Shown here piece after piece: positions 26,196 to 32,065 of a DNA stretch of 64,000 bases. The position numbers and the translations under genes were made by a program. The notes beneath the pieces are model-generated. The model was not told the DNA's origin. It saw nothing but the letters and a program-made list of their open reading frames with translations, and ran no database searches. The stretch is from Escherichia coli (GTDB lineage Bacteria; Pseudomonadota; Gammaproteobacteria; Enterobacterales; Enterobacteriaceae). The stretch is taken from assembly GCF_009931435.1 (NCBI RefSeq), contig NZ_CP043414.1; one strand, written 5' to 3'. Position 1 is the first letter of the stretch; every line of letters begins with the position of its first letter.

Positions 26196-27116
26196 ATGAA
26201 AACGGTTTCGATAAAACACACTTACTGGGATATAGCTGCTGATATCTATTTCCCTGACGATTTTAATAGTGAAAAAAAGTATCCTGCCATTATCAGTGCC
26301 CATCCAATTGGAAGCTGCAAAGAACAGACATCGGGTAGTGTGTATGGTGCCGCCCTGGCAAAAGCTGGCTTTATCGTCATTGCTTTTGATGCCAGTTTTC
26401 AGGGAAGCAGCGGTGGAGAACCGCGTTATCTGGAAGATCCAACAATGCGAGTAAAAGACTTCAGCATTGTCGTTGATTACCTTACCACCTTACCTTACGT
26501 TGATGCCGGGCGTATTGGTGTACTGGGTATTTGTGGTGGAGGTGGATATGCCATTAATGCCGCAATGACAGAACGTCGGATTAAAGCCATTGGTACTGTC
26601 ACGGGTGCTAACTACGGGCGTCTTATGCGTGAGGGATTTACAGCGTTTAATCCTATCGGAGCACTCGAAGCAATGGCGCAACAAAGAACAGACGAAGCTA
26701 ACGGCGCAAAACTTCGCGTAGATGATTTGCTCCCTTCTTCTCCGGAAGCAGCTCTTGAAGCGGGATTAACAGAAATAGACCTTTTTGAAGCAACAGAATA
26801 TTATCGTTCGCCACGAGGCTGTGCGCCTAATGGGGTAAATCGTTCGCTATTTTCACATCAGACTGTTGCCGTGGGCTGGGATGCTTTTCATCTTGCAGAA
26901 GTCCTGTTAACTCAACCACTAATGGTTGTAGTGGGCGATAGAGTGGGCGCTTTTGGTGCCTATCGTGACGGCTGCGAAATTATTGGTCGTGCAGCCTCAA
27001 AACATAAAGAGTTGGTCGTGGTTGAAGGTTATTCACATTACGACCTGTATGATAAGCCAGAACCTGTGAAACAGGCGCTCGATAAATTAATTCCTTTTTA
27101 CAAAACACATTTGTAA
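26196..27116 (+). CDS. alpha/beta-fold hydrolase, no signal peptide
   Basis: 306-aa ORF with nucleophile-elbow-like LGICGGGGYA; paralogous to the ORF at 45817..46953. Confidence 0.8.
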   Translation: MKTVSIKHTYWDIAADIYFPDDFNSEKKYPAIISAHPIGSCKEQTSGSVYGAALAKAGFIVIAFDASFQGSSGGEPRYLEDPTMRVKDFSIVVDYLTTLPYVDAGRIGVLGICGGGGYAINAAMTERRIKAIGTVTGANYGRLMREGFTAFNPIGALEAMAQQRTDEANGAKLRVDDLLPSSPEAALEAGLTEIDLFEATEYYRSPRGCAPNGVNRSLFSHQTVAVGWDAFHLAEVLLTQPLMVVVGDRVGAFGAYRDGCEIIGRAASKHKELVVVEGYSHYDLYDKPEPVKQALDKLIPFYKTHL

Positions 27117-27288
27117 TAACCTTGCAGGGAGATTCATTATCTCCCTGAGATTTATCCTTTATTGACTACACGACAATAATAAAATTACTCAAAAAGAATT
27201 CTATTAAAGGAAAAAAGCATCAAAAAGTAGCAACTCAACTTATTAAGATTATACGCATTAAAATCAGATAAACATTTGAGGTATTGTT

Positions 27289-28431
27289 ATGATAAATAAA
27301 CACCCATCATTGTTTTCTCCTTTTATGCTGACAGAAAAAATAAAGCTACGTAATCGTATCGTTATGGCCCCTATGACGACCTGGTCAGCTAATCCTGATG
27401 GAACCATCTCTGAGCAAGAACTCGAATTTTATAAACGTCGCTCACAAAATGTTGGTTTAGTAATAACAGGATGCACCTATGTCACGCCAAGCGGCATTGG
27501 GTTTACTCATGAATTTGCCGCATATGACGACCGTTTCATTAACAGCCTTGAAAAGTTAGCTGCTGCAGCCAAAAGTGGCGGTGCTCCGGCTATTTTGCAG
27601 ATTTTCCACGCCGGTAATAAAGCCATCCCGGAGCTTGTGCCAAATTACGATGTTATTAGTGCCAGCGCATCAAGCGTAAAATCTGGTGACTTTATGAAGA
27701 GAGTGGTACAAAGCAGGGAAATGACTGAAAACGAAATTCAGGAAACCATTAGAGCATTCGGAGATGTCACAAAAAGGGCGATTAAAGCAGGTTTTGATGG
27801 CGTTGAACTTCATGGTGCGCACGGATTCCTTCTGCAGAATTTCTTCTCCCCTCTATTTAACCAGCGTAATGACCGATGGGGAGGAGATCTTGAAGGACGT
27901 ATGCGCTTCCCGCTGGCCGTATTACAGGAAGTAAAAAATGTAGTCTATGAATATGCGAAAAAGCCCTTTGCCATCGGTTACAGAATATCTCCTGAAGAAT
28001 CTGTAACAGGGGGGCTGCGGATAGAGGATACTTATAAACTCCTTGATCGGCTCATTTCATCCGGTATTTCGTATATACATACCTCGCTGGTCAGTATTAA
28101 CGATAGCTACCCTGTTGAGTCGCCAAATGGCCCCCGAACTATTGAATTGATTTTAAATCATATTGCAGGCAGAGTGCCGGTAATCGCCGCAGGTAAAATA
28201 CGCACACCTTCTCAGGCTCAAGAAGCAATTTCCGCTGGCCTGCCACTTGTTGCGATCGGTAAAGGGCTGGTGATAAATCCAGAATGGGTGACTTTAGCTG
28301 AATCAGGTAGAAGTCATGAAATTCAAACAGCCCTTAATCCACAACGCGTTCCTGAATTAACCATTCCGGATAAACTATGGGATCAAATTCAGGCATCGAA
28401 AGGAACTGGCTGGTTTCCGTTAATGGATTAA
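27289..28431 (+). CDS. NADH:flavin oxidoreductase (Old Yellow Enzyme family)
   Basis: 380-aa ORF; N-terminal LRNRIVMAPMTT and HGAHGFLLQNFFSP motifs typical of OYE/NemA-like enzymes. Confidence 0.85.
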   Translation: MINKHPSLFSPFMLTEKIKLRNRIVMAPMTTWSANPDGTISEQELEFYKRRSQNVGLVITGCTYVTPSGIGFTHEFAAYDDRFINSLEKLAAAAKSGGAPAILQIFHAGNKAIPELVPNYDVISASASSVKSGDFMKRVVQSREMTENEIQETIRAFGDVTKRAIKAGFDGVELHGAHGFLLQNFFSPLFNQRNDRWGGDLEGRMRFPLAVLQEVKNVVYEYAKKPFAIGYRISPEESVTGGLRIEDTYKLLDRLISSGISYIHTSLVSINDSYPVESPNGPRTIELILNHIAGRVPVIAAGKIRTPSQAQEAISAGLPLVAIGKGLVINPEWVTLAESGRSHEIQTALNPQRVPELTIPDKLWDQIQASKGTGWFPLMD

Positions 28432-28903
28432 ATATCTATTACTCTCCCGAGAGTAAAACTATCAAACCAATGAGTAACCGATACAGCCTCGCAAATTCTT
28501 TCAGATAATTAACCCGTCACTGCGGCACGTTCTCTCATAAGGCGTGCCTGCTGTGTAATCCAGTATGTATCCGGCATACTTGACGGTTTAATAGAACTCA
28601 ATTCCTTTCCCAGGTAACCAACAACGATATCTTGTATAACACCCCAGGAGATACGACATTATGATGAGATGAGGTATGCTCCTCAGCGCCAATCAACGCC
28701 AGGGCTGGGCCAGTTTTGAGATCAGACTCATTCCCGGACTGACTTCAGGCGACATATATCAATGACGTTGGGGCAATAAAAGATAGCCGATGTAATACAT
28801 CTATTCAAATTTGTGATACATGTCAAAAAATTGGTTGACCAAACTCGTTATTTATATAAGGGCACTTACGAAGTGCACTCTTTTTTAAAGCGAGGAAGTA
28901 CCA

Positions 28904-29005
28904 ATGAAAGAGAATAAAGTACAGCAAATCAGTCATAAACTGATTAATATCGTTGTTTTTGTCGCAATTGTAGAATACGCCTATTTATTTCTCCATTTCT
29001 ATTAA
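28904..29005 (+). CDS. ykgR: 33-aa hydrophobic small protein (likely YkgR by synteny)
   Basis: ATG at 28904 preceded by GAGGAAG; MKENKVQQISHKLINIVVFVAIVEYAYLFLHFY has a single TM-like segment; lies just upstream of ykgM. Confidence 0.5.
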   Translation: MKENKVQQISHKLINIVVFVAIVEYAYLFLHFY

Positions 29006-29047
29006 TAACGGCAATAAACTGTTCACTTCAGTGATATTTAAAATATG
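28940..29047 (+). repeat. dispersed repeat, copy A (second copy at 48263..48369, about 94% identical)
   Basis: By-eye alignment of about 108 nt shows roughly 6 mismatches and 1 indel. Confidence 0.7.
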
Positions 29048-29340
29048 CATCCTCTCCCTTTTTTTTAAGTGATTATTATATCCGTGGGAGAGGAATACAC
29101 GCTATCAGGTAATCAATCAAACTGCGATAAATCATCGGCCAGTAAAGTGGAGATAGCCTCCATTCTCGAAAAATTCATACTCTCAGCGAAACCATCATCA
29201 ATCACTCATCCAGGCGTTTATGGGAGCGTCGCCAATGGCTGCTAACAATGCCAGACTTCCCCGTTGCCGAAATTCCACATACCACAAATGGTCACAGGGA
29301 TTGGGTGTTGAAATGATCCGGATGAGCATGTATCTTTACG

Positions 29341-29358
29341 GTTATGTTATAACATAAC
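29341..29358. promoter_or_regulatory. Zur box upstream of ykgM
   Basis: Perfect 18-bp palindrome GTTATGTTATAACATAAC centred 17 bp upstream of the ykgM start; resembles the Zur operator. Confidence 0.7.
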
Positions 29359-29366
29359 AGGTAAAA

Positions 29367-29633
29367 ATGATGAAACCCAATATCCATCCTGAGTATCGTA
29401 CTGTGGTGTTCCACGACACCAGCGTTGATGAGTACTTTAAAATCGGCTCGACTATCAAAACAGACCGTGAGATTGAGCTGGATGGCGTAACGTATCCGTA
29501 CGTAACAATTGATGTCTCTTCGAAATCGCACCCGTTCTATACAGGGAAGCTGAGAACAGTGGCATCAGAAGGAAATGTTGCACGGTTCACCCAACGTTTT
29601 GGTCGTTTTGTTAGCACGAAAAAGGGGGCGTGA
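29367..29633 (+). CDS. ykgM: ribosomal protein L31 paralog (type B, zinc-independent)
   Basis: 88-aa [22 protein letters not shown]... with L31 signature and no CxxC zinc ribbon. Confidence 0.92.
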
Positions 29634-29773
29634 TGAAAGTCCTTAACTCTCTGCGTACCGCAAAAGAACGCCATCCAGACTGTCAGATTGTGAAGCGAAA
29701 AGGACGGCTGTATGTGATTTGTAAATCTAATCCACGTTTTAAGGCCGTTCAGGGGCGTAAGAAAAAGCGTTGA
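29633..29773 (+). CDS. ykgO: ribosomal protein L36 paralog
   Basis: Not in the track (below size cutoff). ATG overlaps the ykgM stop (TGATG); translates to [46 protein letters not shown], 46 aa. Confidence 0.88.
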
Positions 29774-29807
29774 TTCATAATTCGCCGGATTAACGATATT
29801 TGTCTGA

Positions 29808-30035
29808 TTAATAATCAGACCGGATTAATGTTGGTGTATTGATTACACCAACATTAATTTTCCTGGAAATATATTCTTTAAGTTCATTTAAAGCCAACTG
29901 CCTGACGTTTCTCTCCGAATATTCCATTATATTAATGTTGATTTGTTGACCAACTTCGCCCCTGTATGCTGGTATCAACTCTCTTTTAGACTGAACAAGC
30001 CACTCCGCCCCCTCCCTTTGCGGAGCAGCCTGCAT
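29808..30035 (-). CDS. hypothetical 75-aa protein (ykgL-like by position)
   Basis: Track ORF only; overlaps the ykgMO terminator hairpin, so it may be spurious. Confidence 0.3.
   Translation of the reverse strand: MQAAPQREGAEWLVQSKRELIPAYRGEVGQQININIMEYSERNVRQLALNELKEYISRKINVGVINTPTLIRSDY
29824..29858 (+). terminator. ykgMO terminator hairpin
   Basis: ATTAATGTTGGTGTA-TTGAT-TACACCAACATTAAT, a perfect 15-bp inverted repeat followed by TTTTCC. Confidence 0.5.
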
Positions 30036-30791
30036 TTACACTCAAACTGTTAAGATGATAAATGTGGTAAATCTGTTGGTACTAACATAAAAACGTTTAC
30101 GCCACAGGAACAGCCTGATCCACCGGTAACCCCATCGCCGACGTTCGAGTGCCAGTTAGAGTAACGCGCACAGATGACTGCACGCAGTGCCCTGTCAAAG
30201 AGGCCATCGTTCCTGTGACAGCTGGCAGCCTTCGTTTAACTTCACTTAATTTGGCTCTTGGGGGGGCTTACCGAACAGATGACGTAGTCACACCTATTCA
30301 ATTTTTCACCACTTATTGGAGTAAACACCCATAACCATTTTGTGCGGCATGTTAATCCATTAAAACACCTTATTTATTGTCAAATCTTCTTTAATGATGG
30401 TCAATAATAGTTTTATGTTCTATTTATTATCATTAAAACTTGTTTTTTTACTAGTCGAGCACAAAACGCATTAAGACTATTCCTAACACCTCAGGGCAAA
30501 GTTCCTGGCTAATATAAAATGCAAGTAAGAATTGAACGTTATATTGCCAATAACCTTATGAAACTGAATGTCTTTTTCTTCTTATCAAAAAAGCAATATT
30601 TTCATTTTTAGTAAATATTGACTTAACCATGGAATTCCTTTTCTGTTCACATATTGACACTCATCAGGAAAAAAACATAAATTTAAGCCCAATCGAAAAT
30701 AATTAAAACTTAATCTCGTTTAACCTATATTGATATGTGCTACGTATCTTATTTACTTCCGATTTACTAACAACACTGAATGTACTTGTAA

Positions 30792-31403
<612 letters not shown>

Positions 31404-31477
31404 ACTCCAGGCAAGTTAGTTTTAAAAAATGACTCACAGGGACATCATGTCCTCAATTTAACTCGGGAAGAAAAGCA

Positions 31478-32065
31478 ATGAAAAAAAAGGTTCTGGCAAT
31501 AGCTCTGGTAACGGTGTTTACCGGCATGGGTGTGGCGCAGGCTGCTGACGTAACAGCTCAGGCTGTAGCGACATGGTCGGCAACAGCCAAAAAAGACACC
31601 ACCAGTAAACTGGTGGTGACGCCACTCGGTAGCCTGGCGTTCCAGTATGCCGAAGGCATTAAAGGCTTTAACTCACAGAAAGGTCTATTTGACGTGGCTA
31701 TTGAGGGTGACTCAACGGCTACCGCCTTTAAACTGACCTCACGTCTTATCACCAACACCTTAACCCAGTTGGATACCTCAGGTTCCACACTGAATGTGGG
31801 CGTGGATTATAACGGCGCGGCAGTCGAAAAAACTGGCGATACCGTGATGATCGATACCGCCAACGGCGTACTGGGCGGCAACCTTAGCCCGCTGGCTAAC
31901 GGTTACAATGCCAGCAATCGTACCACCGCACAGGATGGTTTCACCTTCTCCATCATCAGCGGTACCACCAATGGTACCACCGCAGTAACCGATTACAGCA
32001 CTCTACCGGAAGGCATCTGGAGCGGCGACGTTAGCGTACAGTTCGACGCGACCTGGACCAGTTAA
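31478..32065 (+). CDS. ecpA: E. coli common pilus major subunit EcpA (MatB)
   Basis: 195-aa ORF with signal peptide [22 protein letters not shown]. Confidence 0.93.

Follow-up and report, generated by a model that had tools for sequence, protein, structure and literature searches.

What is the function of a small hairpin and T-run that lie immediately ahead of the 33-aa gene ykgR in Escherichia coli? The hairpin sits at the upstream edge of positions 28860-29773 of the window (the whole 64,000-nt stretch of DNA analyzed here). This locus is the already characterized E. coli ykgR/ykgM-ykgO region, and its two independent transcription units, ykgM-ykgO and ykgR, are both known in E. coli. A sequence-only reading had described a palindrome upstream of ykgM, an overlap between ykgM and ykgO, a short hydrophobic ORF with a ribosome-binding site, and the hairpin with its T-run, and inspection of the sequence found all of these elements where it had placed them. 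The hairpin and T-run ahead of ykgR are the only element without an existing annotation.

Gene Content and Conservation of the Locus

RefSeq and K-12 annotation place ykgR (b4671), ykgM (L31B), and ykgO (L36B) in this interval. The locus was present in approximately 5,090 of 5,426 complete E. coli genomes at 95-99.5% identity, with the same genes annotated. The window comes from a non-K-12 E. coli whose surrounding spacers are about 96% identical to those of K-12. Across 28789-29011, which holds the ykgR promoter, leader, and coding sequence, the window and K-12 show 0 differences, and 35 differences were counted in the remaining 708 nt compared. Upstream, an intact ORF at 27289-28431 (plus strand) is annotated by RefSeq (strain RMDEC465) as a 380-aa NADH-dependent flavin oxidoreductase and matched Pfam Oxidored_FMN with an E-value of 1.6e-77, whereas in K-12 this gene is reduced to the ykgP pseudogene remnant. 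Downstream, ykgL (29808-30035, minus strand; RefSeq annotation, given for context only) is convergent with ykgO. A search of 27000-32000 against Rfam at a permissive E-value returned no match.

The ykgM-ykgO Operon and Its Zur Box

The ykgM gene (29370-29633, plus strand) encodes L31B, a ribosomal protein of the cysteine-free type B, as assigned by RefSeq, NCBIfam (NF002462, 122.9 bits; cutoff, 86), and Pfam (Ribosomal_L31). The type B ribosomal protein L36B is encoded by ykgO (29633-29773, plus strand), according to RefSeq and NCBIfam (NF002021, 91 bits; cutoff, 70). No Cys occurs in the translation of YkgM and only two, C17 and C30, in that of YkgO. Compared with RpmE and RpmJ and their CxxC motifs, both proteins have lost the Cys ligands of the zinc ribbon, and they are zinc-independent paralogues of L31 and L36. 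As had been read from the sequence, the start of ykgO overlaps the ykgM stop: the TGA at 29631-29633 and the ATG at 29633-35 share one base to give TGATG, in agreement with RefSeq. The two genes are probably coupled translationally through this overlap.

A consensus scan identified the ykgMO promoter, TTGAAA-17-TATCTT, at 29308-29336 (plus strand), and identical TTGAAA and TATCTT hexamers are given for ykgMO by Shimada et al. 2014 (PMC3946193). The perfect 18-bp palindrome GTTATGTTATAACATAAC, found at 29341-29358 (no strand assigned) by inverted-repeat and motif scans, begins 5 bp 3' of the -10 element TATCTT (29331-29336). It satisfies the Zur-box motif RxxxYRxxR*YxxYRxxxY (Gilston et al. 2014, PMC4219657) at every specified position (G-TTA-T-G-TT-A*T-AA-C-A-TAA-C) and was the sole match at three or fewer mismatches in the 64-kb window, where 0.03 would be expected by chance. 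The sequence is identical in K-12 (gap-free alignment). The suggestion that this palindrome is a Zur box is borne out by the motif fit and by published work on K-12, in which it is the Zur operator of ykgMO. The literature describes ykgMO as Zur-repressed; among four Zur sites compared by EMSA Kd, the ykgM (L31p) operator binds most tightly, and it gives 560-fold repression in vivo (PMC4219657). Transcription of ykgMO would start from TTGAAA-17-TATCTT and be repressed by Zn-Zur bound just 3' of the -10 element. The K-12 operon has the same genes, promoter, and 1-nt overlap and an identical palindrome, and no substantive difference was found.

The ykgR Gene and Its Distribution

The short hydrophobic ORF proved to be ykgR (28904-29005, plus strand; RefSeq WP_000662258.1, K-12 b4671), which encodes a 33-aa small inner-membrane protein identical in the window and K-12. 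The good ribosome-binding site ascribed to it is the Shine-Dalgarno sequence GAGGAAG (28892-28898, plus strand), 5 nt before the ATG. YkgR matched the NCBIfam equivalog NF041474 over residues 1-33 of 33 (78.1 bits, cutoff 40), and its translation contains a single hydrophobic segment, LINIVVFVAIV. No match was obtained with a local copy of Pfam, although homologues carry PF28062. In published work YkgR is a membrane protein that is a client of SRP and a substrate of RseP.

The YkgR family hardly occurs outside E. coli, and 1.84 billion representatives include only 9 of its members. A metagenome scan with a general pattern yielded 101 loci, and a metagenome scan for loci without the E. coli codon yielded none. 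Scanning genome contigs with a codon-degenerate motif returned only one chance match and two K-12-identical contamination contigs. L004/P0009 was discarded as a low-quality assembly full of indels, and the unusual C-terminus of P0006 was a Nextera adapter at the contig end. In a divergent locus, L003, the neighboring genes are about 83% identical to those of E. coli and ykgR lies behind a different gene. Homology between L003 and E. coli starts only at about 28789, and the promoter, hairpin, and coding sequence move together. The Shine-Dalgarno sequence showed no substitutions in the E. coli-type variants examined and reads GAGGAAA in L003.

The ykgR Transcript Ends before the ykgM Promoter

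An inverted repeat at 29050-29094 (plus strand) forms a ykgR 3' stem-loop with a perfect 9-bp GC-rich stem (TCCTCTCCC / GGGAGAGGA) and a 27-nt loop that contains a T-run (-16.6 kcal/mol, z -3.0). Its stems are invariant across E. coli variants, and the loop and downstream sequence vary. We compared this structure with the Term-seq data of Adams et al. 2021 (PMC7815308), moving the coordinates from K-12 to the window through a gap-free alignment. Supplementary file 1 of that study lists a 3' end at 313047 on the K-12 minus strand, with 48,378 and 59,236 reads in two condition sheets, which corresponds to position 29099 (plus strand) in the window. This RNA end lies 94 nt past the ykgR stop and 5 nt past the 9-bp GC stem, with the ykgM promoter farther downstream. 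It was published as an unassigned, "orphan" 3' end and coincides with the unusual long-loop stem-loop of ykgR. The ykgR mRNA ends at this stem-loop, 5' of the ykgM promoter.

Some lineages retain ykgR while ykgMO has been lost through a 667-bp deletion. We rejected a functional link between ykgR and ykgMO in view of the separate promoters, the ykgR 3' end between them, and the lineages without ykgMO.

A Conserved Promoter Block with a CRP-Like Site

The conserved ykgR module begins at the palindrome GATGTA-A-TACATC (28789-28801, no strand assigned), detected as an inverted repeat, and a further conserved palindrome lies in the promoter at 28831-28842. Between them, a motif scan found the CRP-like site TGTGA-TACATG-TCAAA at 28812-28827 (no strand assigned), centered at 28819.5. 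It has one mismatch to TGTGA-N6-TCACA and is the sole match at one or fewer mismatches in the window, where 1.9 would be expected by chance; by itself the match is statistically unexceptional. Its half-sites are invariant across lineages, and the spacer varies (TG to CC in L003, L036, and L057; G to A in L055). Hemm and coworkers are said to have found in 2010 that CRP activates ykgR, and detection of chromosomal YkgR together with CRP activation is reportedly to be found in the work of Hemm (2008/2010), Thomason (2015), and Weaver (2019). A literature search for a mapped ykgR transcription start or a CRP ChIP peak found neither.

Two overlapping candidate -10 elements for ykgR, suggested by sequence and alignment, lie at 28849-28858 (plus strand): TATTTA (28849-54), at a spacing suited to class II geometry, and TATATA (28853-58), which is kept in L003. 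Both lack the canonical T at -7, and a sigma-70 consensus scan reported no promoter in this block. The position 41.5 bp from the center of the CRP-like site is 28861, a G. On this spacing we infer a ykgR transcription start at about 28861 and a role for CRP at 28812-28827; the hairpin would then begin at +2. Like class II CRP promoters such as galP1, ykgR has a TGTGA-N6-TCAxA site just upstream of and overlapping the -35 region and a weak -10 element. Unlike in those promoters, the best-conserved -10-like hexamer of ykgR, TATATA, would place the CRP-like site at about -45. If transcription started 6-8 nt past TATATA (about 28864-28866), the mRNA would lack the 5' arm of the hairpin, and the hairpin could matter for read-through transcripts only.

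Structure of the Leader Hairpin and Comparison with Terminators

The hairpin GCACTT-ACG-AAGTGC (28862-28876, plus strand) has a 6-bp stem and a 3-nt loop (-6.5 kcal/mol) and lies about 42 bp downstream of the center of the CRP-like site. It is followed by ACTC and TTTTTT (28881-28886), the CTC and the run of six T together occupying 28878-28886 (plus strand), so that the hairpin and T-run stand directly 5' of the ykgR ribosome-binding site, as had been noticed. The 25-nt core folded better than shuffled sequences (z -3.97), and the fold of the 56-nt context was no better than shuffles (z -0.57). The hairpin was retained in both the MFE and the centroid fold of the whole predicted 239-nt mRNA.

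A stem-loop followed by six U is also what canonical Rho-independent terminators present, and one explanation is that the element halts RNA polymerase arriving from the oxidoreductase gene, leaving ykgR to be transcribed from its own promoter only. The sharpest form of this explanation holds that transcription of ykgR itself begins at the hairpin or within it and hence escapes termination; a start directed by the conserved TATATA (about 28864-66) would indeed fall within the 5' arm. The hairpin passed a minimal terminator scan (6 pairs, 3 GC) and was the sole terminator-like site on either strand of 28300-30200, a region that takes in the 430-nt spacer following the stop codon of the oxidoreductase gene. 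However, one site in this 1.9 kb equals the chance yield, 1.3 being expected in shuffles. The 6-bp stem has only three GC pairs, and the U-run begins 4 nt past it. Moreover, the hairpin is unchanged in K-12 despite the loss of the upstream gene, and in L003 it follows ykgR behind another gene, with homology starting only about 75 nt upstream of the hairpin.

The K-12 Term-seq tables (Adams et al. 2021) contain no 3' end anywhere at 3132xx, that is, at the hairpin. This absence is weak evidence on read-through termination because the upstream gene in K-12 is a remnant, and few polymerases may reach the hairpin from that side; in addition, Term-seq may miss very short RNAs. Taken together, we consider an insulating terminator rather unlikely, even though substitutions in the stem keep RNA pairing (see below).

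Natural Variation in the Hairpin

Natural variants affect three of the six hairpin pairs, in each case replacing the pair with G·U on the plus strand, and 100% of cells were paired. The substitutions are A28864G, A28872G (L003 and L062), and C28876T, each giving G·U on the plus strand and a C·A mismatch on the other. No double compensatory changes were found, the four changes all being one-sided. In L003, the stem is kept despite five changes across the 21 nt that span the hairpin. We take the hairpin as real because of its conservation and these pair-preserving substitutions, not because of its strength. A rare natural 13-nt deletion allele removes the hairpin but leaves ykgR intact; at least 3-5 complete genomes carry it, strains SCU-172 and MSB1_4I among them, indicating that the hairpin is dispensable.

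This variation bears on two further explanations. The repeat could have no function, being a chance inverted repeat kept as the ykgR block is young and near-invariant in E. coli. Such a view would be consistent with the chance-level number of terminator-like sites, the fold of the 56-nt context, the near restriction of the family to E. coli, and the hairpin-less allele. However, pairing survived all four stem substitutions, for which we estimate a neutral probability of roughly 0.01-0.04, and the stem withstood the changes in L003; we regard absence of function as very doubtful. Alternatively, GCACTT-N3-AAGTGC, at about +1 to +15, could act as DNA by binding some repressor of ykgR. A perfect 6-bp inverted repeat at the usual position of a repressor operator would suit this role, and the promoter has the other conserved palindromes at 28789-28801 and 28831-28842. 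In contrast, all four natural stem changes break the DNA symmetry and keep G·U pairing in RNA from one strand only. We know of no ykgR regulator besides CRP, and a DNA operator seems most improbable.

Possible Pairing between the Leader and the Start Region

The CTCTTT after the hairpin (28878-28883) is complementary to AAAGAG in codons 2-3 of ykgR (28907-28912), and the resulting helix appeared in the MFE and centroid folds. In the E3K variant L079 this helix is broken, and in L076 it is altered. A regulatory leader (an attenuator, translational switch, or thermometer) might use such pairing, its U-run alternating between a terminator and the Shine-Dalgarno sequence or codons 2-3 according to a signal, e.g., temperature. 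In short contexts the U-run pairs with GAGGAAG, in longer ones CUCUUUU-AAAGAGA pairing encloses the Shine-Dalgarno sequence and the AUG (z -2.35), and both partner sequences are retained in L003. However, the upstream sequence contains no antiterminator complement to either hairpin arm, the second helix does not survive in the E3K allele and changes in L076, the leader of L003 shows no gain in folding over shuffled sequences (z -0.66), and the Rfam search offered no match. A switch of this kind is highly doubtful. Attenuation through a leader peptide was rejected, since the sole ORF across the hairpin (28820-28888) has no Shine-Dalgarno sequence and has lost its start codon, ATG, in three lineages (L003, L036, and L057).

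The sequence-only reading had proposed that the hairpin and T-run insulate ykgR from upstream transcription or control it by attenuation. Neither role was supported: the stem is weak, the T-run stands 4 nt off, the hairpin lies 3' of ykgR's own promoter block, and there is no antiterminator partner, conserved leader ORF, or Term-seq 3' end at the hairpin. The 4-nt gap before the U-run, the lack of an antiterminator and a leader peptide, and the lack of a Term-seq end likewise set the element apart from canonical terminators and attenuators.

Discussion

The most likely explanation is that ykgR is transcribed into a monocistronic, CRP-dependent mRNA with the hairpin as its 5'-terminal stem-loop; we infer the start of this mRNA from the spacing of the promoter block. 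The data establish the identity of the genes, the operator for Zur, a separate 3' end for ykgR, and the conservation of the hairpin with pair-preserving substitutions. In the proposed scheme, ykgR would form a separate monocistronic unit with its own conserved promoter block, including the CRP-type site. As the 5'-terminal stem-loop, the hairpin may protect the mRNA from 5'-end-dependent decay, and the CUCUUU that follows it would pair weakly with codons 2-3 around the ykgR start region. The hairpin would be a candidate stabilizing element, and the conservation of its stem on the sense strand favors this role.

Emory, Bouvet, and Belasco reportedly described in 1992 the ompA 5' UTR hairpin as a 5'-terminal stabilizing stem-loop. 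The ykgR hairpin resembles it in being short, in leaving at most 1-2 unpaired 5' nt if the start is at 28860-28862, and in belonging to an abundant RNA. In contrast, the ykgR stem is shorter and weaker than that of ompA, and the likeness depends on the predicted start.

Two variants of this arrangement appear quite unlikely. In the first, a terminator embedded in the promoter may stop read-through, while CRP-dependent ykgR transcripts start at or inside the 5' arm and so escape. If the hairpin proved to be a terminator placed at the start site in this way, it would neatly illustrate how a promoter can be insulated and add no new principle. In the second, the abundant RNA of about 239 nt, flanked by 5' and 3' hairpins, may serve both as an mRNA and as a regulatory RNA, like azuC/AzuCR.

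The response of E. coli to zinc starvation, to which this locus belongs, has been studied in detail: one set of ribosomal proteins is exchanged for another, and L31B exerts feedback on rpmE. YkgR, for its part, is a model small membrane protein. What is new here is descriptive only, namely the conserved ykgR leader hairpin and the long-loop 3' stem-loop at an orphan Term-seq end. The natural alleles that lack the hairpin or lack ykgMO may offer ready-made test strains.

Gene order and the Zur-controlled ykgM-ykgO genes

Of 5,426 complete E. coli genomes, 5,090 matched the segment 28440-29900 (95-99.5% identity) and had ykgR, ykgM, ykgO, and ykgL annotated beneath the match. The closest record, RMDEC465 (flavin oxidoreductase, ykgR, ykgM, ykgO, ykgL, and ecpR), and K-12 MG1655 (ykgP remnant, ykgR (b4671), ykgM (b0296), ykgO (b4506), ykgL, and matA) have a common gene order at the ykgR-ykgL locus. 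YkgR, YkgM, and YkgO each scored above the curated cutoff of its NCBIfam model (YkgR, type B L31, and type B L36, respectively), and a Pfam search likewise recognized L31 and L36, as well as the Oxidored_FMN enzyme encoded upstream. The latter, a 380-aa NADH-dependent flavin oxidoreductase (27289-28431), is intact in the window, whereas its K-12 counterpart is the 90-bp pseudogene fragment ykgP. Every element listed in the sequence-only reading was found in the sequence.

The ykgMO genes are reportedly repressed by Zur. The perfect 18-bp palindrome GTTATGTTATAACATAAC (29341-29358) was unique within the window even at 3 mismatches (0.03 expected by chance), was identical in K-12, and fitted the Zur-box motif RxxxYRxxR*YxxYRxxxY (Gilston et al. 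2014) at all specified positions. Of the four E. coli Zur operators, that of L31p (ykgM) scored best and was bound most tightly, and repression from it in vivo was 560-fold (Gilston et al. 2014). A consensus scan detected a promoter-like site, TTGAAA-17-TATCTT, at 29308-29336. This hexamer pair is listed for ykgMO by Shimada et al. 2014, which places the start of the Zur box 5 bp past the -10 element. The TGA stop of the L31-like ORF (29631-29633) overlaps the ATG of the L36-like ORF (29633), giving the TGATG junction already seen in the sequence-only reading. Zur control of ykgMO, also proposed there, is borne out by the motif fit, the published operator, and the K-12 identity, and is established knowledge. 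Derepressed L31B represses rpmE via the rpmE 5' UTR (2022 study).

A long inverted repeat, ATTAATGTTGGTGT...ACACCAACATTAAT (29775-29870), lies between the convergent ykgO and ykgL. Its K-12 version surrounds a Term-seq 3' end classed by Adams et al. 2021 as internal to ykgL and antisense to ykgO, and the repeat is probably a bidirectional terminator.

YkgR and the 3' end of its RNA

The 33-aa hydrophobic ORF at 28904-29005, whose ATG is separated by 5 nt from the Shine-Dalgarno sequence (SD) GAGGAAG, had been rightly picked out as a small gene: it is ykgR. Its product is an established single-pass membrane protein that is recognized post-translationally by SRP and cleaved by the intramembrane protease RseP. 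The YkgR family is almost confined to E. coli: a search of 1.84 billion proteins gave just 9 matching cluster representatives, most of them truncated or frameshifted copies. Scanning a genome contig collection with a codon-degenerate YkgR core motif returned neither the E. coli species representative nor other Escherichia species; for the former, either ykgR is missing from that genome or the scan missed it. Short contigs in two unrelated genome assemblies, Sulfoacidibacillus thermotolerans Y002 (contig122, 403 bp) and Alkalicoccobacillus porphyridii P16 (NODE_260, 264 bp), also matched the ykgR locus. Both carried the K-12 allele at every site separating K-12 from the window and most likely stem from contaminating E. 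coli DNA.

On the minus strand, the Term-seq tables of Adams et al. 2021 place a strong, unassigned ("orphan") 3' end at K-12 position 313047; two condition sheets give it 48,378 and 59,236 reads. Transferred through a gap-free alignment, this position corresponds to 29099, which is 94 nt past the ykgR stop and 5 nt beyond a perfect, GC-rich 9-bp stem (29050-29058/29086-29094) with a 27-nt loop. The T-run lies within the loop rather than 3' of the stem; the arms were invariant across E. coli variants, and the loop and the sequence beyond varied. The region 29050-29099 is an atypical terminator or else a 3' structure that blocks exonucleases. The strong 3' end indicates that ykgR RNA is plentiful and stops short of the ykgM promoter, and ykgR is a transcription unit separate from ykgMO.

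The probable leader hairpin of ykgR

Transcription of ykgR is reportedly activated by CRP. The sequence TGTGA-TACATG-TCAAA (28812-28827, centre 28819.5) was the sole match in the window to the CRP core with at most 1 mismatch (1.9 expected by chance); its half-sites were invariant across lineages, and its 6-nt spacer varied (TG to CC, G to A). The centre lies 41.5 bp from G28861, a class II geometry. With transcription starting at this predicted position downstream of the CRP-type site, the stem-loop GCACTT-ACG-AAGTGC (28862-28876) would begin at +2 and form the 5' terminus of the ykgR mRNA. No canonical -10 hexamer was found by consensus scan among the candidates before ykgR, and the best-conserved candidate, TATATA (28853-58), would place the start inside the 5' arm of the hairpin. 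Two further palindromes, GATGTA-A-TACATC (28789-28801) and TTGGT-TG-ACCAA (28831-28842), are present in this promoter and are both kept in the divergent homologue L003; the second resembles GntR-family half-sites with a 2-nt spacer.

Three elements recurred in the minimum free energy and centroid folds of the predicted 239-nt transcript (28861-29099): the hairpins at its 5' and 3' ends, and a CUCUUUU/AAAGAGA helix that encloses the SD and AUG. Short stem-loops at the very 5' end, preceded by hardly any unpaired nucleotides, stabilise E. coli mRNAs such as ompA. We regard it as moderately probable that the hairpin belongs to ykgR's own leader, probably as a 5'-terminal stem-loop downstream of a CRP-type promoter.

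Window and K-12 differed at 35 of 931 nt, with zero differences within 28789-29011, and of 5,066 records matching the 118-nt ykgR promoter and leader, 4,331 did so at 99% identity or more. None of the polymorphisms seen there (28786-88, 28802, 28831, and 28877) fell in the stem, the U-run, the SD, or a CRP-like half-site. In L003, whose neighbouring genes are ~83% identical to E. coli, ykgR stands behind a different gene (YdgH/BhsA-like), and homology with the window starts only from ~28789. By these comparisons, the hairpin is part of a conserved ykgR module.

Among 101 metagenomic copies, extra genomes, and L003, the stem substitutions were A28864G, A28872G (in the homologous locus L062 and in L003), and C28876T. 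Read on the + strand, each turns a Watson-Crick pair into G·U; on the opposite strand it would be a C·A mismatch. The stem remained 100% paired: 3 of its 6 pairs varied, always on a single side, and there were no double compensatory changes. Taking the chance of preserved pairing as ~1/3, the 4 of 4 pair-preserving changes give P ~0.01, a rough estimate from small numbers. These changes speak for an RNA structure on the sense strand rather than for a DNA operator or chance.

The sequence-only reading had proposed that the hairpin insulates ykgR from upstream transcription or acts by attenuation. Beyond the stem come ACTC and a run of six T (28881-28886). The stem has 6 pairs (3 GC; -6.5 kcal/mol), the U-run starts 4 nt past it, and one terminator-like site in 1.9 kb equals the shuffled-sequence level. 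As a terminator, it is marginal. The Term-seq table of Adams et al. 2021 that lists the ykgR 3' end lists none at K-12 3132xx, where the U-run lies (~313260), although K-12 is without the upstream gene and very short RNAs may escape Term-seq. For attenuation, no upstream complement to either hairpin arm was found; the sole ORF across the hairpin (28820-28888) is without an SD and has no ATG in the homologous loci L003, L036, and L057. The helix formed by the U-run region and ykgR codons 2-3 is not strictly conserved, being broken by the E3K allele (G28910A) and lacking two bases in L076. Furthermore, a 13-nt deletion between AAG repeats (~28860-28872) removes the 5' arm and loop in a metagenome contig (L112) and in at least 3-5 complete E. 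coli genomes (H83-H87), where ykgR is still annotated intact. Thus, Zur, ykgMO, and the small ORF of the earlier reading stand, all being known, and insulation or attenuation is not supported; it is the weaker reading, with an insulating terminator unlikely. The leader hairpin of ykgR is nearly universal yet dispensable.

Separate fates of ykgR and ykgMO

The 667-bp segment 29070-29736 is missing from several metagenomic lineages (L036, L057, L076, L027, L063, L070, and L104), some of which keep ykgR. Lost with it are ykgM and its Zur box, most of ykgO, and the 3' arm of the ykgR 3' stem-loop. In the window, TTTTAAG is found at both ends of this segment, and in the lineages a 3' remnant of ykgO adjoins ykgR; they are natural ykgMO-deletion genotypes. 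In L027, L063, L070, and L104 (homologous to 28937-29053), unrelated sequence replaces the promoter, leader, and first ~11 ykgR codons, leaving only the C-terminal ~22 codons, and ykgR appears to be decaying in this lineage. In E. coli O157:H7 Z1832 (L008), loss of 1 nt at the position matching 28956 shifts the ykgR frame, and an ISEc8 transposase follows ykgR in place of ykgM; in strain 96_1414B (L012) ykgM is truncated by an IS600 element. ykgR and ykgMO are neighbours, not a functional pair.
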